Below are positions 1 to 24,246 of a DNA stretch of 26,569 bases, one piece after another. Positions within the stretch are counted from its first letter, which is position 1. The number at the start of each line of letters is the position of its first letter. This stretch comes from Planctomycetaceae bacterium (GTDB taxonomy: Bacteria; Planctomycetota; Planctomycetia; Planctomycetales; Planctomycetaceae): contig DATKBI010000089.1 of the NCBI GenBank assembly GCA_035514115.1, forward strand, positions 1 to 26,569, read 5' to 3'. The notes below the pieces were generated by a model. That model had not been told where the DNA came from, did not search any database, and saw nothing but the letters and a program-made list of their open reading frames with translations. The translations under genes and the position numbers were made by a program.

Positions 1-765
1 TTCCTGAAGCACTCCGTCGCGCCTGAAGGCATCTCGGCGGGAGTCGAAAACGTGGACTGCTTCGAGCTGGATTCGCCCGAAAAACCGCTCGCGAAACCGC
101 CGGAAGTAAGGACCCGACGTGAAGCTTCGCGGAGTGATAAAAACCAGTTCGCCGCCCGGCGCGAGGAGCGAGGCCGAAACGGCCATGAACAGCGCGTAGA
201 TGTTTGGCTGACCATGCACGACATGATCGGCCGCCCTGGCACGCGGATCCGACTTCGGGAGTTTGAAATACGGCGGGTTTCCGATGACAACATCGTACTC
301 GGCCCGCTCCTGCCCGTTGCCGAAGAGCGACTCGCTTCGGCGAAGCTGTGGCGCATGCTCGAGGATGAAGTCCTCCGAGAGTGCGCGATGCTTCACGGCG
401 AGCCCGCGTCGCCGCAGTTGCGTCTCCAGGTGGCCCAACACCTGCTTGAGGATCGGAAGCAGTCTGGGATCACACTCGTACGCGTCGATCACGATGCGCC
501 GCGGCGGCGGAGTGCGTCGCGAGAGCCCTTCCGCCACGGCACATGCCAGCACACCAGTTCCAGCCCCGGGATCGAGAATCCGAACCTCCTCCGCGTCGCA
601 GTCCACGAGCGAAGCCATGAACTCGGCAACTGCGACGGGCGTCAGGAACTGGCCGTACCGCTTTTTGTGAGTGGCCGAGGTTCCCAGCGCGTACGCTCGC
701 CCTGCGCGGTCCGCGAAGACCGTGGGACGCTCGTCGGGAATGGGTCTGAATGAGTCGGAGAGCAT
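1..765 (-). CDS. N6-adenine DNA methyltransferase of the Eco57I/TaqI gamma class, N-terminal part only. The gene continues past the window's 5' edge, so the C-terminus lies outside.
   Basis: I translated the minus strand by hand. It starts with ATG (complement of 763-765) after an in-frame TGA. It carries the SAM-binding motif I ILDPGAGTGVLACAVAEGL and the catalytic motif IV VVIGNPPYFKL in the gamma-class order. The frame stays open to position 1. The plus-strand ORF 52-753 is its antisense shadow. Confidence 0.8.
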   Translation of the reverse strand, partial: MLSDSFRPIPDERPTVFADRAGRAYALGTSATHKKRYGQFLTPVAVAEFMASLVDCDAEEVRILDPGAGTGVLACAVAEGLSRRTPPPRRIVIDAYECDPRLLPILKQVLGHLETQLRRRGLAVKHRALSEDFILEHAPQLRRSESLFGNGQERAEYDVVIGNPPYFKLPKSDPRARAADHVVHGQPNIYALFMAVSASLLAPGGELVFITPRSFTSGPYFRRFRERFFGRIQLEAVHVFDSRRDAFRRDGVLQE

Positions 766-1049
766 CGGCGAGTGCACGTCGGCAGGTTTGCGCGCCACAT
801 ACGGTTTTCAACGCGGGCTTATTCTGATGTATACGTCTTTGCTTGACAAGCGACCGCGCGTGAATCCACGCAGCCGGCCGGATGGCCGCGGCCGACTGGC
901 GGGGAGTTGAGTGGTCCGGCGACGATTCCTGGCTGTCATCGTGTTCGTAATGGCCGGGGGCCCTGCCGGTGTCTTGTCGCACGACGGGGCTTACCGTACA
1001 TTTTGGAACGCCCCACACACGACCGACCACCCAGGACCGACCACTCACC

Positions 1050-1517
1050 ATGCCCACCGAACGCACGCTGATCCTCATCAAGCCCGACGCCGTCCAGCGC
1101 CGCCTCGCCGGCCGGATTCTGACCCGCCTCGAGGAGCGCGGGCTGAAGATCGTCGGCCTGAAGATGCTCCAGATCACGCGGGACCTGTCGCGGCACCACT
1201 ACGCCGAGCACGTCAACAAGCCGTTCTATCCGCTGCTCGAATCGTTCATCACCTCCGGTCCCGTCGTGGCTCTGGTCGCTGAAGGCCCGCAGGCCGTGTC
1301 CGTCGTCCGCGCCATGCTGGGTCCGACCAACGGCCGCGATGCCGCGCCCGGCACGATCCGCGGCGACTTTGGCCTGAGCCGGCAGATGAACCTGGTCCAC
1401 GGCAGCGACAGCCCCGCCGCCGCCGCCCGCGAGATTGAGATCTATTTCCGCCCCGAGGAGCTGCTCGACTACGACACAACCCTCGGCCACTGGGTCTGCG
1501 CCGACGACGAGCGCTGA
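1050..1517 (+). CDS. ndk: nucleoside diphosphate kinase
   Basis: The translation MPTERTLILIKPDAVQRRLAGRILTRLEERGLKIVGLKM...NLVHGSDSPAAAAREIEIYF carries the canonical Ndk motifs, including the active-site NxxHGSD. It is about 155 aa. The ORF-track entry 969-1517 has a spurious N-terminal extension. Confidence 0.95.
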   Translation: MPTERTLILIKPDAVQRRLAGRILTRLEERGLKIVGLKMLQITRDLSRHHYAEHVNKPFYPLLESFITSGPVVALVAEGPQAVSVVRAMLGPTNGRDAAPGTIRGDFGLSRQMNLVHGSDSPAAAAREIEIYFRPEELLDYDTTLGHWVCADDER

Positions 1518-1622
1518 GAGGTCGTGAAGGAAAGGGGACAGGCACGCTCGCGGAAGCTGTTTCGCCGGCATTTCGAACATGGGCCGCGAGCCAGTCCCCT
1601 TTCCTTCACACGCGCTGAGAGG
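1511..1622. mobile_element. MITE-like element with perfect 16-bp terminal inverted repeats (1524-1539 and 1594-1609) flanked by an 11-bp direct repeat
   Basis: The two arms, GTGAAGGAAAGGGGAC and GTCCCCTTTCCTTCAC, are exact reverse complements separated by 54 nt. An inner second stem pairs CGCTCGCGG with CCGCGAGC. The element is flanked by direct copies of GCGCTGAGAGG at 1511-1521 and 1612-1622. The first copy contains the ndk TGA stop and the second supplies the GAGAGG ribosome-binding site of nqrA. Confidence 0.5.
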
Positions 1623-1629
1623 TTGTGGC

Positions 1630-2976
1630 ATGATCAGAATCAGACGGGGCGTCGACATCCCGCTCGCGGGAGAGCCCGTCCAGGCAATTTCCAGCGCACC
1701 GGCCGTCCGCACCGTCGGGCTGGTCGGTGACGATTACGTCGGCGTCAAGCCCGCCCTGGCCGTCCGCGAAGGCGAAGACGTCGCCCTCGGACAGGTGCTG
1801 TTCACCGACCGCAGGAATCCCGGCGTGCAGTTCACGTCGCCGGGCTGCGGCACCGTCGCGGCGATCAATCGCGGGGCCAAACGCGCGTTCCAGTCGATCG
1901 TCATCGCGCTCGACGGCGACGAAGAGCAGACGTTTCAGTCGTATTTCGACGCCGACCTGACGACGCTCACCCGCGAGCAGGTCCGCCGCAGCCTGCTCGA
2001 ATCAGGACTGTGGACGGCCCTCCGCACGCGGCCCTACAGCAGAATTCCGTCCCCCGAGACGGCCCCGCATTCGATCTTCGTCACCGCGATCGACACGAAT
2101 CCGCACGCGGCCCGCCCCGAGGTCGCCATCGCCGAGCACGAGCTGCCCTTCATCTACGGGCTGAACGTCCTGCGGCATCTCTCAGACGGCAAGCTCTACG
2201 TCTGCAAGCGGCCCGGCGCGCCCGTTCCCGGACGCGAGCTGAAGTTCACGACGTTCGTCGAGTTCGCCGGCCCCCATCCCGCCGGCCTGCCTGGCACGCA
2301 CATCCACGTCCTCGATCCCGTCGGGCCGCACAAGACGGTCTGGCACATCTCGTGGGCGGACGTCATCGCCATCGGCCGGCTGTTCACCTCCGGCCGTCTG
2401 CCGGTCGAGCGCGTCGTCTCGCTCGCCGGGCCCGCCGTCAGGAATCCGCGGCTCGTGAGGACCCGCCTGGGTGTGAACGTCATCGAGCTGATGGCGGGTG
2501 AAACCGCCCCGGGAGACCATCGCCTGATCTCCGGCTCCGTGCTCAGCGGCCGGGCGGCGGTCGAGCCGTTCCAGTTCCTGGGCCGCTACCACGCGCAGGT
2601 CTCCGCCCTGCGTGAAGGCCGCGAGCGCGTCTTCCTGGGCTGGCAGACACTCGGCTTCCGCAAGTTCTCGGTGAAGAAGGTCTACGCCTCGGCGTTCTTC
2701 GGCGCCGGCCATCCGCTGGAGTTCACCACCTCGCTCGAAGGCAGCAAGCGGCCGATGGTTCCCGTCGGCACCTACGAGACCGTCATGCCGCTGGACATCC
2801 AGCCCACGTACCTGCTCCGCTCGCTGATCGTCGGCGACACCGAACAGGCCCAGGCCCTCGGCTGCCTCGAGCTCGACGAAGACGACCTCGCCCTGTGCAC
2901 CTTCGTGTGCCCCGGCAAATACGAATACGGCCCGCTCCTGCGGCAGACGCTCAATCGAATCGAACGCGAAGGTTGA
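1630..2976 (+). CDS. nqrA: Na+-translocating NADH:quinone oxidoreductase subunit A, stand-alone
   Basis: The N-terminus [18 protein letters not shown] is typical of NqrA, and the 448-aa length matches. The start is the ATG at 1630, 7 nt after a GAGAGG ribosome-binding site. No nqrB-F genes follow; the next gene is convergent. Confidence 0.85.
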
Positions 2977-3013
2977 CGTCCCGGAGGAGACCTCTCGCTC
3001 TGGAATCGTGCCC

Positions 3014-4270
3014 CTATCCGCCGCCGTCCAGCGCCACCACCCGCGACCCCGGATAGTAGTACCGCAGAATGTCCGCTGCCGTTCGTCCCGCCGAGGCCAG
3101 CCCGCGCGCGCCCCACTGGCACAAGCCCACCCCGTGGCCGTGGCCGCGGCCGTGGAACGTGACCTCGGCGGGGCCCGGCTCGAGGGCGAACCGTGGACTG
3201 GGCAGCGACGCCCCCACGAGCCGGCTGCGGAGCGTGGCCGCGGCGATGCGGTGCTCGCGGCGGCCGTCGCTGACCAGCAGCTCGACCGTCCCGTCCGGGC
3301 GGTCCCGCGCGGCGGCCGATCGCAACGAGTCGAACGCCAGCCCCTCGCCCGCCAGCAGCTCGAGCAGCTTCGCCTCAAACTGCGACCGCGGAACGGTCCG
3401 CGTCCAGCGATACAGCGGCGCCTCGCGGCAGAACGCGCACGGCACGCTCGCCAGTTCCGTCGCGTCGGCGAACACCGCCCGTCCTGCGACCGTCCGCCCG
3501 CCGCAGACGGCGGAGTAATACGTGCAGAACAACCGGCCGCCGCGCGTCGAAACCATGCCCGCCGTGTCGGCGGCGATCTCGCGGCTGGCGGCGCTTTCGC
3601 CGGCCAGCCGCCGGCCGTCGCCGCTGCGATATTGAAATCCCAGGTACCGCTGGCTGCGCGTGCTGGCGAATACGTCGAACAGGGGATGCCGCCGCTCCCG
3701 CTGCCACAACGCATACGTCCGCGCCACGATCGCCTGCGCCCGGCGGGCCTCGTCGGGGAACGCCGCCGGCATCTCGCTGTCGATCACCGACGCGACGTAT
3801 TCCTCCAGCGGCAATACGTTCACGGCCAGCAGCCGGCCGCCCGGCTGGCGGAACAGCCGCAGGCGGCCGCGGTACTGGTGCCCGGCGGCCCAAACCGCCG
3901 GCGAGCGGTCGGGGACGATCTCGACCCGCGAGACGGCCAGCGTCTGCCGGCCGATCTGAAGCCCGTCGGCCGTGGCCGTGACGATCGTTTCGGGCAGCCG
4001 CGCGCCGCGCGCCAGATCCTGCGCGACTCCCACGGGCTGGACGCGATAGCCGCCGTCGACGGCGATTTCGATCCGCTCGACCGGCTCGTCGGTCAGGCAC
4101 ACGCGGATGTCGGGAGAAAAACGGGGCCGGACTGGCTGCGGCAGGCTGAGCGGCGGCCCCCCGAGGCGCGGCGGCTGCGGCCCCGCGGTCTGCGGCGAGA
4201 CGTCGAGACAGACCGCCGCCGCGATCAGAGCGGCGAGCAGCCCGATGCAGACGGCGATCCCTCGCGGCAT
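3014..4270 (-). CDS. SpoIID/LytB-domain protein (amidase enhancer-like), secreted
   Basis: It has an N-terminal signal peptide MPRGIAVCIGLLAALIAAAVC. The SpoIID core LPLEEYVASVIDSEMPAAFPDEARRAQAIVARTYAL is present, along with the conserved C-terminal GHGHGVGLCQWGA. The ribosome-binding site is GGAAGGA. Confidence 0.85.
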   Translation of the reverse strand: MPRGIAVCIGLLAALIAAAVCLDVSPQTAGPQPPRLGGPPLSLPQPVRPRFSPDIRVCLTDEPVERIEIAVDGGYRVQPVGVAQDLARGARLPETIVTATADGLQIGRQTLAVSRVEIVPDRSPAVWAAGHQYRGRLRLFRQPGGRLLAVNVLPLEEYVASVIDSEMPAAFPDEARRAQAIVARTYALWQRERRHPLFDVFASTRSQRYLGFQYRSGDGRRLAGESAASREIAADTAGMVSTRGGRLFCTYYSAVCGGRTVAGRAVFADATELASVPCAFCREAPLYRWTRTVPRSQFEAKLLELLAGEGLAFDSLRSAAARDRPDGTVELLVSDGRREHRIAAATLRSRLVGASLPSPRFALEPGPAEVTFHGRGHGHGVGLCQWGARGLASAGRTAADILRYYYPGSRVVALDGGG

Positions 4271-4382
4271 CGGCGATCCTTCCGTCGTTGTGAAAGAATG
4301 GGGACTGGCTCGCGGCCCCTACGCCGACTGCCCGCGAAATCAAACTCTGCGAGCGTGCCTGTCCGCATTCTTCCGCAACCGG

Positions 4383-5714
4383 TCAATCGTTCCGCAGCTT
4401 CAGGTTCATCTCACCCAGCCGTGTGCGGATTTCGTTGAGCGAGGTCACGCCGAAGTTTCGAGTGCCCAACAGCTCGTCGGGGGTCTTCTGGACCAGCTCG
4501 CCGACCGTCGTGAGGCCCAGCCGGGTCATGCACTTCCGCGCCCGGACCGAGAGGTTCAGATCGTTGACCGACCTGGTCAACACGGCCTGCTCCTGCGGCG
4601 AGAGGTCGCGCTCGAAGTACGCCGGCAGCGGCCGCGGTTTTCCCAGGTTCTGACCGATCTGCAAGTCGTGCTCGGCCATCAGGTCGCGGACTTCCTTGAG
4701 CGACGTCTCGCCGAAGTTCTTGCCGTTGAGCAATTCCTGCTCGCCGATCCGCGTCAGGTCGCCGAGCGTGTGGATGTTCATTCCCTGCAGGCAGTTGCGG
4801 CTGCGGACCGTCAGCTCGAAATCAGTGATCGGGCGGCTGAGCAGTTGCTCGAGCCGCGCCTGCCGGCGGGCTGACTCGTCGTCGTAGTACATGTCGCCGG
4901 CCGCCTCGATGTCCCGCAGGTACAGCCGCGCCCGGGCGTGCGTCGGGTCGTGCTCGAGGATCTTGCGGAAACAGTAGGCGGACGCCGCGTAGTTCTCCTG
5001 GTCTTCGTAGAGCAGCCCCAGGTTGAGCAGCGACCCCAGATACAACGGCGGGCGGGCCAGCGACCTCTCGTACAGCCGGATCGCAATCTCGTCGTTGCCC
5101 CGCAGCGCGTTCTCGGCGGCCAGCCGGAACAGCGCGCGCGAGTGGCGGGGATCCATGTCGACGGCCCGCTCGAAATACTCGATGGCACCGAACGCATCGC
5201 CCCGGTCGGCCAGGATGCAGCCCATCTGGTACGAATACTCGGCCCGGCTGGCGGCCTGGCGCGAGACGCTTCGCAGCACCTGCTCGGCCTCGTCGATTCG
5301 GCCCTGCGCCCGGATGGCGCCCGCGCGGCGAAGGGCGCACTCGACCGGATCGTAGCCGTACCCGGCCGCGTCGGCGAACTGCCCCTCGGCCTCGTCGTGG
5401 CGCTCCAGGGCCGTCAGCACCAGCCCGTGGTAGAAACACGCCGGACCGTTCTCGTTGGTGACCCACGACAGGTACTCGTCGGCCCGCCGGTGCTGGCCCA
5501 GCAGGTAGCAGGCGATGCCCGCGCGGGTCAGCAACTCCGGCGACGGCCGGTCGGTCGAGGCGATTTCGTCTTCGAGAGCCCGCAACTCCTGCCGGGCCTC
5601 GGAAAGCTGGGGACCGGAGAGAAGCCGGGTCAGCCGCTGGACGTCGCCCGCGGCGAGGGCGGGGTCTTCCCTCAGCAGTTCCCGCACGTTCGACGGTTCG
5701 GTCGCGGTGGCCAT
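4383..5714 (-). CDS. TPR-repeat protein with two C-terminal RNA polymerase alpha-subunit CTD-like helix-hairpin-helix domains
   Basis: The N-terminal half has TPR-like repeats. The C-terminus holds two copies of an alpha-CTD signature: ITDFELTVRSRNCLQGMNIHTLGDLTRIGEQELLNGKNFGETSLKEV and NDLNLSVRARKCMTRLGLTTVGELVQKTPDELLGTRNFGVTSLNEI. Compare E. coli RpoA DLELTVRSANCLK...NLGKKSLTEI. I trimmed the start to the ATG at 5714 (MATATEPSNV), which has an AGGAG site 7 nt upstream. The ORF-track version 4383-6149 has an implausible Arg/Gly-rich extension. Confidence 0.8.
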   Translation of the reverse strand: MATATEPSNVRELLREDPALAAGDVQRLTRLLSGPQLSEARQELRALEDEIASTDRPSPELLTRAGIACYLLGQHRRADEYLSWVTNENGPACFYHGLVLTALERHDEAEGQFADAAGYGYDPVECALRRAGAIRAQGRIDEAEQVLRSVSRQAASRAEYSYQMGCILADRGDAFGAIEYFERAVDMDPRHSRALFRLAAENALRGNDEIAIRLYERSLARPPLYLGSLLNLGLLYEDQENYAASAYCFRKILEHDPTHARARLYLRDIEAAGDMYYDDESARRQARLEQLLSRPITDFELTVRSRNCLQGMNIHTLGDLTRIGEQELLNGKNFGETSLKEVRDLMAEHDLQIGQNLGKPRPLPAYFERDLSPQEQAVLTRSVNDLNLSVRARKCMTRLGLTTVGELVQKTPDELLGTRNFGVTSLNEIRTRLGEMNLKLRND

Positions 5715-7276: not shown

Positions 7277-7419
7277 TCGACTGGTCTCCTCGGAAAAGCG
7301 GCGGTCGTGCCGCGGACAGGCTCAGGAGCGGGGACTGGCCTCCGTGCCACTCCATGTTGCGTCTCCACCGGTCCGCCCGGCAGAAGGCCAGTCCCCGCCC
7401 CTGGCGAAGGTCGCTGAAA

Positions 7420-7869
7420 TTACACGCGCTCCCGTGTGCGGCGGCTGCCGCTGCGGAGCACACTCTTGATCCACGTCAGGTTCTGTGAAAACTCGTCCCG
7501 TGAGCGCTCGAAGACGGCAAACGTCGTGCGGATTGTCCGCCAGGCGAACCACCCCAGCACGCCGCTGACCGCAACCCCGATCGCCGCGGCGATCAGCAGC
7601 GACGCCCACAGGGGCAGTCCCGTCAAGGCGATGAGCCAGGCCAGACCCAGCAACAGGACGGGAAAGCTGGACAGCAGGAGGACCACCCCGACGACGCCCA
7701 GCACGAGCGGCCGCAGAGCCCTGTTCCGCGCTTCGCGCAGGTCCACGAGCAACAGCCGGCCCTGCAATTCGCCCAGAGTCAGAACGTCGTGCGCGAAGTC
7801 CCCCACGTTCAGCCGCAGCGCCGTGCCGGCCTTTTGTCCGCGCCCGTTTACCGTCGCTTGATCAGCCAT
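7420..7869 (-). CDS. phage-holin-family / YqjE-like (DUF1469) inner-membrane protein
   Basis: It has two hydrophobic helices (VLGVVGVVLLLSSFPVLLLGLAWLIALTG and LIAAAIGVAVSGVLGWFAW). It follows a DUF883 gene in the same order as E. coli yqjD-yqjE. A GGGAG ribosome-binding site is present. Confidence 0.65.
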   Translation of the reverse strand: MADQATVNGRGQKAGTALRLNVGDFAHDVLTLGELQGRLLLVDLREARNRALRPLVLGVVGVVLLLSSFPVLLLGLAWLIALTGLPLWASLLIAAAIGVAVSGVLGWFAWRTIRTTFAVFERSRDEFSQNLTWIKSVLRSGSRRTRERV

Positions 7870-14369: not shown

Positions 14370-14442
<73 letters not shown>

Positions 14443-17726: not shown

Positions 17727-17800
<74 letters not shown>

Positions 17801-21408: not shown

Positions 21409-22080
21409 ATGCAGGAGTTCATTGACGCCTGTTTCAGGGGACCGACGCTGCCGGCGAGCATCCTGCTGATCGTCGCCTGCGTGTACTGGGTGTTCGCGCT
21501 GCTCGGGGCCCTGGACCTCGATCTGTTCGACCTCGATCTGGACGTGGACGTCGATGCGGACGCGCCCGGCCATTCGCCGGCCGACATCGGCTTCGTCGCC
21601 CTGCGGTTCCTGAACCTGGGGCGGGTGCCGCTGATGATCTGGGCGAGCGTGTTTGCCCTGGCGTTCTGGTCGGCTTCGATGCTGATTGACGCGACTCGCA
21701 CCTACGCGGGCGGCGGCGAGATCGCGCTGGCGATCGCCCGCAACCTTGGACTGGCCCTCGTGGCGGCCAAGCTGCTGACGCAGCCGCTGCGGGGCAAGTT
21801 CGACGTCCACGAGCCGAACCCCGCCGAGGACTTGATCGGACGGACGTGTGTGATTACCACCACCGAGGCGACGGACCGCTTCGGCTGGGCGCAACTCGAA
21901 ACCGGCGCCTCGCCGCTGGCCCTCAGCGTGCGGGCGACCGACGGAAACCTGTCGAAAGGCGACGTGGCCGAGATCTGCGGCTACGACGCCGAACAACGAA
22001 TCTACCTGGTGAAGGCCGCCGGAAACGTCGAAGCCCGAATGACGAACGAAGCCCGAATCCCGAATGACGAAGGGCGCTGA
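21409..22080 (+). CDS. YqiJ-family (DUF1449, NfeD-like) inner-membrane protein, the usual partner of flotillin
   Basis: A TM helix is followed by an acidic DLDLFDLDLDVDVDAD linker, a second TM pair and a C-terminal NfeD-like beta region. It lies immediately upstream of a flotillin gene, as in E. coli yqiJK. Confidence 0.7.
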   Translation: MQEFIDACFRGPTLPASILLIVACVYWVFALLGALDLDLFDLDLDVDVDADAPGHSPADIGFVALRFLNLGRVPLMIWASVFALAFWSASMLIDATRTYAGGGEIALAIARNLGLALVAAKLLTQPLRGKFDVHEPNPAEDLIGRTCVITTTEATDRFGWAQLETGASPLALSVRATDGNLSKGDVAEICGYDAEQRIYLVKAAGNVEARMTNEARIPNDEGR

Positions 22081-22177
22081 GCCGCCCGGCTCGCGCCACC
22101 CGACCCCGACCCCGACCCCGGCCGCACCTTCGGGCTTCGGACTTCGTCATTCTTTCGTCATTCGAGCTTCGTCATTC
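22037..22177. repeat. array of the 10-mer GAATGACGAA (2 forward copies) and its complement TTCGTCATTC (3 copies), flanking a (CCCGAC)3 tract
   Basis: The forward copies are at 22037-22046 and 22062-22071, inside the 3' end of the yqiJ-like gene. The reverse copies are at 22143-22152, 22154-22163 and 22168-22177. (CCCGAC)3 is at about 22099-22118. Together they form a long imperfect inverted repeat just upstream of the flotillin ribosome-binding site. Confidence 0.6.
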
Positions 22178-22206
22178 GTTATTGACGAGTGTGAAAGGAA
22201 CCTCCG

Positions 22207-24246
22207 ATGCTGCTCGCTGCTGACATCCTGGGCGTCGCCGTGCCGACGTTCGTCGCCATCATCGTGGGCGTCGTGCTCGTCCTGCTGGTGATCGCCTCCT
22301 CGTTCTCCAAGTTCTACCGCAAGGTCGGCCCCGAGGAGGCGATGGTCGTCACCGGCGTCGGCGGCCTGAAGGTCGGCACCGGCACGGGCATCTGGGTGAT
22401 CCCCGTCTTCCAGCGCTTCGAGCAGATGGACCTCTCGGTCAAGCGGATCGAGATCGCCCGCCGCGGCGAAGCCGGCCTGATCTGCAAGGACAACATCCGC
22501 GCCGACATCGAGGTCGCGTTCTTCGTCCGCGTCAACAACACCAAGGAGGATATTCTCCAGGTCGCCCAGTCGCTCGGCTGCCGCCGGGCCTCCGACCCGC
22601 AGGCCCTGAACGAGCTGTTCAACGCCAAGTTCTCCGAGGCCTTGAAGACCGTCGGCAAGCACTTCGACTTCACCGAGCTGTACAACCAGCGCGAGCAGTT
22701 CAAGGAGCAGATCCTCAAAGTCATCGGCACGGACCTCAACGGCTACAAGCTCGACGACTGCGCGATCGACTATCTCGAGCAGACGCCGATCGAGAAGCTC
22801 AACCCGATGAACATCCTCGACGCCGAGGGCATCAAGAAAATCACCGAGCTGACGTCGCGCGAGAAAGTCCAGGAAAACCATTTCACCCGCGAACGCGAGA
22901 AAACCATCAAGAAGCAGGACGTCGAGGCCGCCGAGACGATTTTCGAACTCGAAAAGCAGCGCGTCGAGGCCGAGCAGAAACAGCTTCGCGAGATCGCCGC
23001 CATCACCTCCCGCGAACAGGCCGAGGCGGCGAAGGTCCAGGAAGAAGAGCGGCTCCGCTCCGAGCGGGCGCGGATCATCACCGAAGAGGAAGTCGCCGTC
23101 GCCGAAGAGAACAAGCTGCGTCAGGTCATCGTCGCGCGCAAGAGCAAAGAGCGCACCGACGCGGTCGAATCCGAGCGCGTTGAAAAGGACCGTCTGCTCG
23201 AAGTCACCGAACGCGAGCGCGTCTTCGGCCTCGCGCAGATTGAAAAGGACAAGGCCATCGAACTCCAGCGCCGCGATATCCAGGAGGTGATTCGCGAACG
23301 CGTGATTGTCGAGCGCGCCGTGGTCGAGGAACAGGAGCGGATCAAAGACACTCACGAGTTCGCCGCCGCCGATCGGCTGAAACAGGTGACCGTCACCAGG
23401 GCCGAGATGTCGGCGCAGGAATCGCTGGTCAAGGAGGTCAAGGCCGCCGAAGCGTCGCGTCAGGCCGCCGACCTGCTGGCCCAGCAGGTCGTGATCGAGG
23501 CCGAAGCGCAGCGGTCGGCCGCCGAGAAGCAGACGATCTCCAAGAAGATGCTGGCCGAGGCGCATCAGGCGGAATCGGCCGCGCCGGGTCTGGCCGAGGC
23601 GCAGGTCCTGGCGGCGCGGGCCGACGCGGTCGAGAAGCACGGCACCGCCGAGGCCGAGGTCATGCGGCTGAAGTTCACGGCGGAGGCCACCGGCATCGAG
23701 GCCAAGGCCGAGGCGATGAAGCTGTTCGACGGCGTGGGCCGCGAGCACGAGGAGTTCAAGCTGCGGCTCAACAAGGACAAGGACATCGAGATCGCGGCCA
23801 TCGAGGCGCAGCGGAACATCGCCCGCGACCAGTCGGAGATCGTCTCGGCCGCGCTCCAGAGCGCGCGGATCGATATCGTGGGCGGCGAGACGGCGTTCTT
23901 CGACAAGATCGTGGATTCGATCAAAGGCGGGAAGGCCGTGGACCGGTTCGTGCAGAGCAGCCAGGTCCTCTCGGACGTCAAGGAGACGTTCTTCGACGGC
24001 AACGGCGACCCGGACTACTTCCGCAAGCAGCTCAAGCGGTTCGTGTCGCACTTCGGGATGAATTTCGAGGACATCAAGGACCTGTCGGTCTCGGCGCTGA
24101 TCGGCCGGATGATCCTGGAGTCGTCGAGCGAGGAGACGACCAGTGACCTCACGCGGATCCTGCGGATGGTCAAGGGCGCGGGCGTGGCCGACAAGCGCGT
24201 GGCGTCGCTGGGGCTGGGGCTGGCGGAGACGGCGGACAAGAACTGA
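22207..24246 (+). CDS. flotillin-family SPFH/band-7 protein (YqiK-like)
   Basis: The N-terminal TM is VPTFVAIIVGVVLVLLVIA. The SPFH domain shows EAMVVTGVGGLKV...SVKRIEIARRGEAGLICKDNIRADIEVAFFVRV. It has a long Glu/Arg/Ala-rich coiled-coil flotillin region. It is 679 aa. Confidence 0.9.
   Translation: MLLAADILGVAVPTFVAIIVGVVLVLLVIASSFSKFYRKVGPEEAMVVTGVGGLKVGTGTGIWVIPVFQRFEQMDLSVKRIEIARRGEAGLICKDNIRADIEVAFFVRVNNTKEDILQVAQSLGCRRASDPQALNELFNAKFSEALKTVGKHFDFTELYNQREQFKEQILKVIGTDLNGYKLDDCAIDYLEQTPIEKLNPMNILDAEGIKKITELTSREKVQENHFTREREKTIKKQDVEAAETIFELEKQRVEAEQKQLREIAAITSREQAEAAKVQEEERLRSERARIITEEEVAVAEENKLRQVIVARKSKERTDAVESERVEKDRLLEVTERERVFGLAQIEKDKAIELQRRDIQEVIRERVIVERAVVEEQERIKDTHEFAAADRLKQVTVTRAEMSAQESLVKEVKAAEASRQAADLLAQQVVIEAEAQRSAAEKQTISKKMLAEAHQAESAAPGLAEAQVLAARADAVEKHGTAEAEVMRLKFTAEATGIEAKAEAMKLFDGVGREHEEFKLRLNKDKDIEIAAIEAQRNIARDQSEIVSAALQSARIDIVGGETAFFDKIVDSIKGGKAVDRFVQSSQVLSDVKETFFDGNGDPDYFRKQLKRFVSHFGMNFEDIKDLSVSALIGRMILESSSEETTSDLTRILRMVKGAGVADKRVASLGLGLAETADKN

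Follow-up and report, generated by a model that had tools for sequence, protein, structure and literature searches.

A hairpin between ndk and nqrA of a Planctomycetaceae bacterium is probably a REP/REPIN-like element associated with RAYT-type Y1/HUH transposases

The junction between ndk and nqrA in a Planctomycetaceae bacterium is occupied by a long hairpin with a direct repeat at either side, which raises the question of whether this structure is a regulator of the junction or a mobile element that has entered it, and if mobile, of which kind. The window, by which we mean the whole stretch of DNA analysed (26,569 nucleotides), is an entire contig (DATKBI010000089.1) of a metagenome-assembled genome (MAG; assembly GCA_035514115.1). 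A preliminary description of this locus, made from the sequence alone, had interpreted the hairpin as a miniature inverted-repeat transposable element (MITE) inserted between a stop codon and a ribosome-binding site. We have found that the element is built as a dimer, from the 14-nt half-sites GGGGACAGGCACGC and GGGGACTGGCTCGC in inverted orientation, and that the same half-sites form the terminal structures around Y1/HUH (IS200-like) genes resembling those of REP-associated tyrosine transposases (RAYT), REP standing for repetitive extragenic palindromic sequence and REPIN for REP doublet forming hairpin. Since half-sites of this kind bracket RAYT-type genes, the hairpin is to be seen as a REP/REPIN-like passenger rather than as a classical MITE or a locus-specific regulator. 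In our judgment, the segment 1524-1609 is probably a non-autonomous, RAYT-associated palindromic element of the GGGGWSAS (TIRtron) kind, spread by a Y1/HUH enzyme. The junction, whose hairpin is hereafter called copy 1, contains the following features.

1050-1517, plus strand: ndk (nucleoside diphosphate kinase; Pfam NDK, E = 3e-54), with its TGA at 1515-1517
1511-1522, plus strand: left copy of the direct repeat, GCGCTGAGAGGT, 12 nt, including the ndk TGA and the family heptamer CTGAGAG
1524-1539, plus strand: left outer arm, GTGAAGGAAAGGGGAC, subfamily-specific, a perfect complement of 1594-1609
1534-1547, plus strand: left core half-site W1, GGGGACAGGCACGC, 14 nt, which fits the published GGGGWSAS motif (PMC3733652)
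1548-1585, plus strand: variable centre (inner stem and loop), subfamily-specific
1586-1599, plus strand: right core half-site, GCGAGCCAGTCCCC, the reverse complement of W2 (GGGGACTGGCTCGC), with two A.A mismatches against W1
1594-1609, plus strand: right outer arm, GTCCCCTTTCCTTCAC
1612-1623, plus strand: right copy of the direct repeat, GCGCTGAGAGGT, supplying the Shine-Dalgarno (SD) sequence GAGAGG at 1617-1622
1630-2976, plus strand: nqrA-like gene with all three NqrA domains, ATG at 1630, standing alone and followed by a convergent spoIID

The anatomy given in the preliminary description was confirmed. The perfect 16-nt inverted repeat (1524-1539/1594-1609) and an inner stem are both present, the latter formed by GGC/GCC and CGC/GCG or, in an alternative register, by TCGCGG/CCGCGA, and a search of the window with the 16-nt arm, allowing up to three mismatches, returned 3 matches compared to 0.24 expected. 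The upstream repeat copy does hold the TGA of a Pfam-supported ndk, the hairpin starting 6 nt past this stop, and the downstream copy does place GAGAGG 7 nt before the nqrA ATG. The bracketing repeat itself is likewise real, only its length of 11 bp (GCGCTGAGAGG, 1511-1521 and 1612-1622) had to be revised, as it extends to 12 nt, and 15 of 16 positions agree between 1511-1526 and 1612-1627. The exact 12-mer occurs at only two places in the 26.5 kb, which are the two hairpin flanks, and CTGAGAG occurs three times (3.9 expected), two of the three being the flanking pair. A strong hairpin had been predicted and a folding check proposed; as RNA the region reaches -61.4 kcal/mol over 131 nt (z = -3.5), and as single-stranded DNA -29.8 and -31.3 kcal/mol for the respective strands (z = -5.6 and -5.9), both strands folding equally well. 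A pair of sigma-70-like hexamers (TTCACA and CATGAT, 18 nt apart, with TG) is found at 1605-1634, where it overlaps the right arm and reaches its end on the nqrA ATG; so close to this start codon it could not drive nqrA translation, and it probably arose by chance.

A search for other copies, which had also been proposed, found them within the window, across many genomes of Planctomycetota, and in metagenomes. A first scan of one genome per species, using the core common to copy 1 and to a second copy in the window (copy 2), returned at least 56 stretches, and 27 of those listed show the full anatomy, all 27 in Planctomycetota MAGs, with at least 4-7 separate loci per MAG; among the matches listed, those in other phyla lack the arms and are located in coding DNA. 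Since the first pattern had fixed the mismatch positions, a second, self-complementary pattern with all four positions free was applied to metagenomes and found 104 stretches with 108 sites. The core half-sites GGGGACAGGCACGC and GCGAGCCAGTCCCC recur in about 70 metagenome contigs. Cores of the A,A/A,A type make up 68 of the 108 sites (33 and 35 by contig strand) and perfectly complementary A/T cores 8, so that the A.A type represents 68 of the 76 A/T-type cores, and another 20 of the 108 belong to a sister family whose GGGGACAGGCGCGC palindrome is perfect. A scan of viral contigs found no family copies.

The conserved core consists of the arms GGGGAC-A-GGC-A-CGC and GCG-A-GCC-A-GTCCCC, which pair through 6 + 3 + 3 bp with two A.A mismatches between them, and this core helix, which also extends inward, is recovered by RNAalifold. 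Outside the core, positions 2-5 form a conserved A-run on the left and a T-run on the right, and the outer positions 1 and 6-9 vary by subfamily yet pair in 63-78% of copies, compared to 39-53% in shuffles, with 5-6 pair types at each position. The hairpin structure of the family, as seen from the RNAalifold core helix and from outer-stem pairing above that of shuffles, is under selection. The variable parts are more similar within a genome (identity 0.75-0.88) than between genomes (0.62), as would be expected if the elements amplify within genomes. The hairpin has no family match in Rfam, either at the gathering threshold or at a permissive E-value (a permissive search of 1400-1750 gave only chance-level miRNA matches), and a full-text literature search for the core sequences returned no paper.

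Two variants of the core can be placed beside these results. The orthologous hairpins L057 5853-5906 and L100 10284-10336 (L numbers denote individual loci) have near-identical flanks and differ at both mismatch positions of the left half-site, which reads GGGGACTGGCTCGC in L057, giving a perfect palindrome, and GGGGACAGGCACGC in L100, giving the A.A mismatches, in addition to a 1-nt loop difference; the two half-site types thus seem to interconvert as a unit. The sister family, with about 20 sites (L064, L065, L072, L074, L081, L086, and others), has the complementary core GGGGACAGGCGCGC...GCGCGCCTGTCCCC and arms of the GAGAAAG/CTTTCTC type.

The association with a transposase has been found at loci in genomes other than that of the window. 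In L099, a 208-aa open reading frame (ORF) located between two complete hairpins matches Pfam Y1_Tnp with 34.4 bits (cutoff 23), and its sole and best NCBIfam match is the REP-associated tyrosine transposase (REP_Tyr_transpos, NF047646; E = 6e-16). The transposases of L180 and L181 are 71% and 66% identical to it, and each is bracketed by exact 14-nt half-sites in inverted orientation, so that exact core half-sites stand on both sides of a Y1/HUH gene in three independent loci. More distant homologues in L081, L167/168, L172, L173, and L174 (50-60% identical, with one weaker match, and one of them from a Planctomycetes MAG) have (G)GGGAC[AT]G hairpins of this design in their flanks, e.g., GATATAGGGACAGGCAC..., AAAATAGGGACAGCTACC..., GAACGGGGACTGG..., and GAATACGGGGACAG...; in L081 it is the sister AG/CT family that lies beside its own RAYT-like ORF (phmmer E = 1.3e-24). 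This hairpin design flanks all eight distinct Y1 loci examined. Y1_Tnp was passed by all seven transposases tested. The transposases have a conserved C-terminal extension of ~80 aa. A search of the PDB with a single transposase sequence gave no match; a profile of 20 homologues matches ISDra2 TnpA, E. coli TnpA_REP (4ER8), and IS608 TnpA, with the HUH histidines and the catalytic Tyr aligned and invariant (profile vs. 4ER8 and 2XM3). REPs and REPINs in the broad sense are recognized by dispersed, mostly intergenic copies, by half-sites flanking a Y1/HUH gene, and by a conserved stem mismatch, and all three are found here. A transposase of another type stands in L063, where an IS4/IS5-family DDE transposase (1-870, minus strand; DUF4096 and DDE_Tnp_1) starts ~100 nt from a hairpin of the window subfamily (977-1043), and the apparent end of this insertion sequence (IS), GAGAGTCTATCCGGAAAC, abuts the hairpin flank word. 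The IS may have targeted the hairpin; insertion sequences that target REPs are known.

Enzymes and repeats of this kind have been described before. Inverted repeats with a common GGGGWSAS motif flank the RAYT-like genes called TIRYT, which are numerous in R. baltica (Di Nocera et al., 2013; PMC3733652); these genes have been placed in TnpA_REP subclass 2.1 (Quentin et al., 2018; PMC6006769). E. coli TnpA_REP acts on single-stranded DNA hairpins and cuts C|T at either side; it requires the stem mismatch, as perfect-palindrome mutants were neither bound nor cut (Ton-Hoang et al., PMC3333891). By analogy, this requirement could explain in mechanistic terms why the A.A mismatches of the planctomycete core are invariant.

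Flanking sequences carry a further signal. Direct repeats of at least 8 nt border 8 of 114 copies, compared to 0.43% of randomly re-paired flanks, the clearest being those of the window (12 nt), L033 (10 nt), L098 (about 16/20 nt), L058 (9 nt), and L077/L146 (13 nt); most copies have no detectable duplication, and where one is present its length ranges from 7 to about 20 nt. Repeats of at least 7 nt are found at 4 of 12 copies with at least 10 perfect outer-arm pairs and at 4 of 108 others. Over all copies, the correlation between perfect-arm length and direct-repeat length is weak (Spearman 0.12, p = 0.18), and it is only the contrast at 10 or more perfect arm pairs that suggestively links arm preservation to duplication. 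Given that the repeats are significant and commoner beside well-preserved arms, duplication accompanies at least some insertions, and it probably decays with time. The heptamer CTGAGAG, or its complement CTCTCAG, also lies beside the arms at L110, L123, L002, L070, L073, and L094, where the genes are unrelated to those of the window and to each other, so that its recurrence at independent insertions marks a site specific to the family rather than a target hit at random. L110 is arranged as the window is, its left CTGAGAG copy holding the TGA of the upstream gene and its right copy the SD before the next ATG. Other subfamilies have GCTAAC/GCTAGC as flank words: GCTA occurs in 13 and 17 of 84 flanks (3.4 expected), most right flanks reading GCTA and not GTT, CTAG is 13-fold enriched on the right flank, and CTAA is also enriched. 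All these words begin with C-T followed by a stop-like triplet, which might reflect C|T cleavage, although this is only a lead.

As single-stranded nucleic acid the half-sites pair (6 bp, A.A, 3 bp, A.A, 3 bp), a subfamily-specific A-rich/T-rich arm lengthening the helix outward and a variable stem-loop lying inward. On this basis the following path can be proposed. A RAYT-like enzyme encoded elsewhere in the genome would recognize the mismatched single-stranded DNA hairpin, as E. coli TnpA_REP does with REP, and would cut at the short C-T word found at the hairpin foot (CTGAGAG here, GCTAAC/GCTAGC in others), from which copies could spread within the genome. Copy 1 would have landed in a TGA-GAGAGG stop/Shine-Dalgarno junction, where the duplication would have preserved the stop of ndk as well as the ribosome-binding site of nqrA; as its arms and its 12-nt flank duplication are perfect, this insertion looks recent. 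It would place a very stable hairpin 6 nt past the ndk stop in any ndk-nqrA transcript, and by analogy with REPs such a hairpin could protect the upstream mRNA from 3′ exonucleases, partly attenuate read-through, or disturb the termination of ndk translation. In this respect, Liang and colleagues are said to have found in 2015 that ribosomes stall when a REP lies no more than about 15 nt from a stop codon.

A more specific idea, which we hold only tentatively and consider rather doubtful, is that RAYT-linked hairpins of Planctomycetota insert with a variable target duplication (7 to about 20 nt) centred on a C-T-(stop-like) word such as CTGAGAG. If so, a chemistry or repair pathway that has not been described for HUH/Y1 elements would be at work, and the coincidence of CTGAGAG with stop/SD junctions would let the element enter coupled genes while sparing stop codon and ribosome-binding site. 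The pre-insertion allele would then read ...GACGAGCGCTGAGAGGTTGTGGCATG..., with a single 12-mer and without the hairpin.

Several results weigh against a REP/REPIN-like origin for copy 1 or leave part of it unexplained. We know of no HUH/Y1 transposition that makes target-site duplications, and under an HUH model the perfect 12-nt repeat is for that reason unexplained. The orientation of CTGAGAG relative to core polarity is the same in 6 of 8 copies, with the window copy in the minority, and such an unfixed orientation is unlike the prediction of a strictly strand-specific mechanism. The classical REP tag GTAG/CTAC is not enriched, being found in 3-7 of 84 flanks (4.3 expected). As for the enzyme, the L099 transposase scores 58.6 bits, below the curated RAYT cutoff of 80 for NF047646; Pfam at E ≤ 0.1 detects in the seven transposases Y1_Tnp only, without the C-terminal helix-turn-helix (HTH) of subclass 2.1; and a RAYT gene is absent from the 26.5-kb window, to which the search was confined. 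Furthermore, the statistics of genomic context given below rest on heuristic gene calls. Finally, related loci have yielded no empty site. The genes ndk and nqrA are adjacent in none of the five NqrA-relative loci (proteins 67-82% identical): in L163, L164, L165, and L166 (67-69%), nqrA heads nqrABCDEF behind unrelated genes, and in L161, the closest (82%), a lone nqrA with a convergent spoIID next to it has a non-homologous upstream region; an exact protein look-up of the window NqrA returned no record. Relatives of SpoIID have likewise provided no clean empty site for copy 2. One of them, L182 (66% identical), keeps the gene pair that flanks copy 2, a tetratricopeptide repeat (TPR) gene and spoIID, with a 67-nt spacer in which the core is absent and no significant fold is seen (z = +0.86); the 3′ part of this spacer is similar to the right arm followed by the SD, suggesting the decayed remains of an old, partly deleted insertion and not a clean empty site.

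How the copies lie relative to genes was assessed with a heuristic GC3-based gene caller that reproduces the genes of the window. Both neighbouring genes could be resolved for 55 copies, of which 30 are placed between tandem, 19 between convergent, and 6 between divergent genes, so that 49 face the 3′ end of a gene; a stop codon is frequently found no more than about 20 nt away from the core. When polarity is taken against the gene that ends towards the hairpin, the core is sense in 25 cases and antisense in 39; the window subfamily is itself mixed, with the window copies sense and L110 and L123 antisense. The family consensus, AAAA-N-GGGGAC...GTCCCC-N-TTTT, has a T4 run past a G+C-rich stem on both strands.

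This placement could be taken to mean that the hairpins are bidirectional intrinsic terminators or mRNA-stabilizing stem-loops selected by the host, alike by convergence or constraint and not mobile. The T-runs on both strands, the preference for gene 3′ ends, the excess of convergent over divergent sites, and the nearby stops all agree with it; the role would leave unexplained, however, why a 14-nt core with two specific A.A mismatches is identical across many genomes, and genome-specific subfamilies, transposase association, and flank duplications all indicate mobility. Moreover, an intrinsic-terminator scan calls neither window copy, the T-run of copy 1 being interrupted, and full termination by copy 1, which lies inside a co-directional pair, would silence nqrA. 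We therefore consider this explanation quite improbable, while terminator or stabilizer activity may be a secondary, exapted role. That the hairpin is not a regulator of this one locus, as its preliminary interpretation had held, is borne out by the copies elsewhere and by the closest NqrA relative, L161, which has no hairpin upstream of nqrA. It is very improbable that the family is a structured RNA gene or a cis-regulatory RNA motif (a small RNA, or a protein-binding leader) active in one orientation. Its stable fold with covarying stems, its conserved asymmetric core, and the sense orientation of both window copies would fit such a role, but it has no Rfam match and its two strands fold equally well, and the mixed polarity of the core, across the family and within the window subfamily alike, argues against a strand-specific RNA function, which was rejected on these statistics.

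Among mobile elements, the classical MITE of the preliminary description would be a deletion derivative of a DDE insertion sequence, moved by cut-and-paste through its terminal inverted repeats (TIRs) with a target-site duplication of fixed length (11-12 bp here). Perfect TIRs and a perfect 12-nt direct repeat speak for it, a DDE element would easily accommodate a flank word that occurs in both orientations against an asymmetric core, the flank words CTAA/CTAG resemble IS5-type targets (the motif being YTAR), and an IS4/IS5-type DDE transposase does stand beside one copy, in L063. However, none of the fetched loci has a DDE transposase bounded by the arms, and an IS5-type parent was discarded since the L063 IS end is unlike the arms. 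The inner core is the most conserved part while the outer termini vary between genomes and covary, the opposite of what is expected of transposase-bound ends. Duplication length is not fixed and most copies have none, and at 8 of 8 distinct Y1 loci the same hairpin design brackets the transposase. A classical MITE is thus improbable, and the label is not supported, the partner being RAYT-like Y1/HUH and the flank CTGAGAG recurring at unrelated loci; of the broader claim of a small non-autonomous mobile element with target-site duplication, a dispersed repeat with duplication beyond chance remains, and the kind of partner and the variable length of the duplication depart from it. An integron attC-like recombination site, i.e., an imperfect palindrome directly after the stop codon of a cassette, is hardly conceivable. 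Conserved unpaired bases, a position directly past stop codons, and flanks that in some cases resemble RYYYAAC/GTTRRRY (e.g., GCCTAAC, GTTAGGC) recall attC, but the copies are dispersed over many contigs and on both strands without same-orientation arrays of short cassettes, conservation is central whereas attC sites conserve their terminal R/L boxes, most right flanks are GCTA and not GTT, and the partner gene encodes a Y1 transposase and not an IntI integrase; the dispersed arrangement and the part that is conserved were decisive in ruling it out. Membership in the GTAG/CGTC-tagged REPs (superfamilies of Di Nocera) was rejected as well, as the GTAG tag is not enriched in the flanks.

A REP/REPIN-like element of the TIRtron kind can then be compared with the systems already described. 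Like TIRtrons and their TIRYT genes, it has a left half-site, GGGGACAG, that fits GGGGWSAS, inverted repeats that bracket Y1 genes, and dispersed copies in the form of inverted dimers, and R. baltica, a planctomycete, has already been noted for its many genes and repeats of this type. We met with no account in the searchable literature of the 14-nt core with its two conserved A.A mismatches, of its breadth over Planctomycetota and metagenomes, of the covarying arms, or of the flanking CT-words. Subclass 2.1 genes were reported to have no REP-like sequences nearby (Quentin et al.; PMC6006769), whereas hairpins flank the Y1 genes here, and the C-terminal HTH of that subclass (Bac_DnaA_C, HTH_23, or HTH_28) is not detected by Pfam in our transposases.

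With the REP, BIME, and REPIN sequences of Escherichia, Pseudomonas, and Stenotrophomonas the family shares numerous short intergenic palindromes, mostly at gene 3′ ends, genome-specific families, a sequence that also flanks a domesticated Y1/HUH gene (REPtron), and a conserved stem mismatch, which in E. coli is needed for binding and cleavage (PMC3333891). On the other hand, the planctomycete hairpins have no GTAG or CGTC tag, form one long stem of about 85-95 nt from two non-palindromic half-sites instead of two small REP hairpins, and are linked to transposases that stay under the NCBIfam RAYT cutoff. Some copies also have long flank duplications, of which we know no description for REPs. 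Elements of IS200/IS605 (IS608, ISDra2) have the enzyme fold and catalytic motifs in common with our case, as well as imperfect hairpins recognized on single-stranded DNA and short foot words that define cleavage or target sites; they differ in being autonomous, with unlike left and right ends, and in inserting 3′ of a tetra- or pentanucleotide without duplication, whereas the dispersed planctomycete unit is a gene-less, near-symmetric hairpin. Hairpin MITEs such as Correia/NEMIS of Neisseria, ERIC of enterobacteria, and RUP are likewise small, intergenic, and co-transcribed, with TIRs and a flanking direct repeat. Their duplications are short and fixed (e.g., TA) and they have DDE-type parents or TIR-defined ends, unlike the variable ends, conserved core, and Y1 partner found here.

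If this reading is correct, the ndk-nqrA hairpin is a recent passenger insertion and not an evolved regulator of nqrA. Planctomycetota, for which few genetic tools exist and whose intergenic DNA is poorly annotated, would gain a searchable repeat family, GGGGACAGGCACGC...GCGAGCCAGTCCCC, together with a candidate mobilizing enzyme, and the invariant A.A mismatches would be testable recognition determinants for RAYT-type enzymes, analogous to the REP bulge of E. coli. What remains most interesting is that a Y1/HUH partner goes together with significant duplications of variable length, centred on a specific stop/SD-like word; such duplications and CT-initiated words lie outside current HUH models and could show how REP-like sequences spread.

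Two further hairpins of the window belong to this context.

4290-4376, minus strand: copy 2, same subfamily, ~80% identical to copy 1, its arms with 2 mismatches and 1 G.U
7323-7403, strand not assigned: third hairpin, related in design (GCGGGGACTGGCCT...AGGCCAGTCCCCGC), its 14-bp stem perfect and its inner core different

Copy 2, which is older than copy 1, lies 2.7 kb from it on the opposite strand, preceded by the TGA (4383-4385) that ends a TPR/RpoA-CTD gene and followed by the SD of spoIID with its ATG (4268-4270). It thus repeats the stop-hairpin-SD-ATG layout of copy 1 in the same orientation relative to the flanking genes; of its flanks only ~8 of 13 positions still match. The third hairpin (-60.9 kcal/mol over 126 nt) starts with GGGGAC[AT]GG, as in the family, and has as neighbours a small ORF on the minus strand and a gene at 7420-7869, whose 3′ end faces it.

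Copies 1 and 2, being inverted, bracket exactly the nqrA-spoIID segment (1609-4290). Pairs of complete hairpins elsewhere, in L150 (1372-1425, 3777-3830) and L067 (117-172, 1616-1672), bracket 1.4-2.4 kb with ordinary-looking genes and without a Y1 transposase, and in L150 the similarity of the flanks runs well past the hairpins. In the MAG CAVQSF (L004, L011, L017, L020, L038, L046), the repeat reaches at least 45 nt past the hairpin on both sides, with the extended flanks CGCTCCGATTTTCGGC...GCACACTGCCAGACGAAAGGGGG and ...GTCTGGCTTCGTGAA.AATCCGGGCTAGC, so that the mobile or duplicated unit there is larger than the hairpin; L011 and L046 are identical across the region displayed. Small arrays adjoining a complete hairpin consist of tandem partial duplicates of half-sites or arms, e.g., repeated GCGAGCCAGTCCCC, AAAAAGCGGCGC, or CAGTCCCCGTTTTTCGCT, and occur in L115/L140 7313-7386, L118 19-89, L135 1355-1422, L148, L157 1972-2060, L133 1-40, and L136 1926-1960.

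Elsewhere in the window, tRNA genes at 14370-14442 (minus strand) and 17727-17800 (plus strand) are the sole Rfam matches at the gathering threshold. An unrelated long intergenic hairpin at 22024-22180, between an ORF ending near 22080 and an ORF starting at 22207, is built of repeats of the units CGAATGACGAA / TTCGTCATTCG that surround a G+C-rich centre in which CCCCGA recurs; it folds with -87 kcal/mol over 201 nt (z = -5.3) and possibly represents another repeat family.

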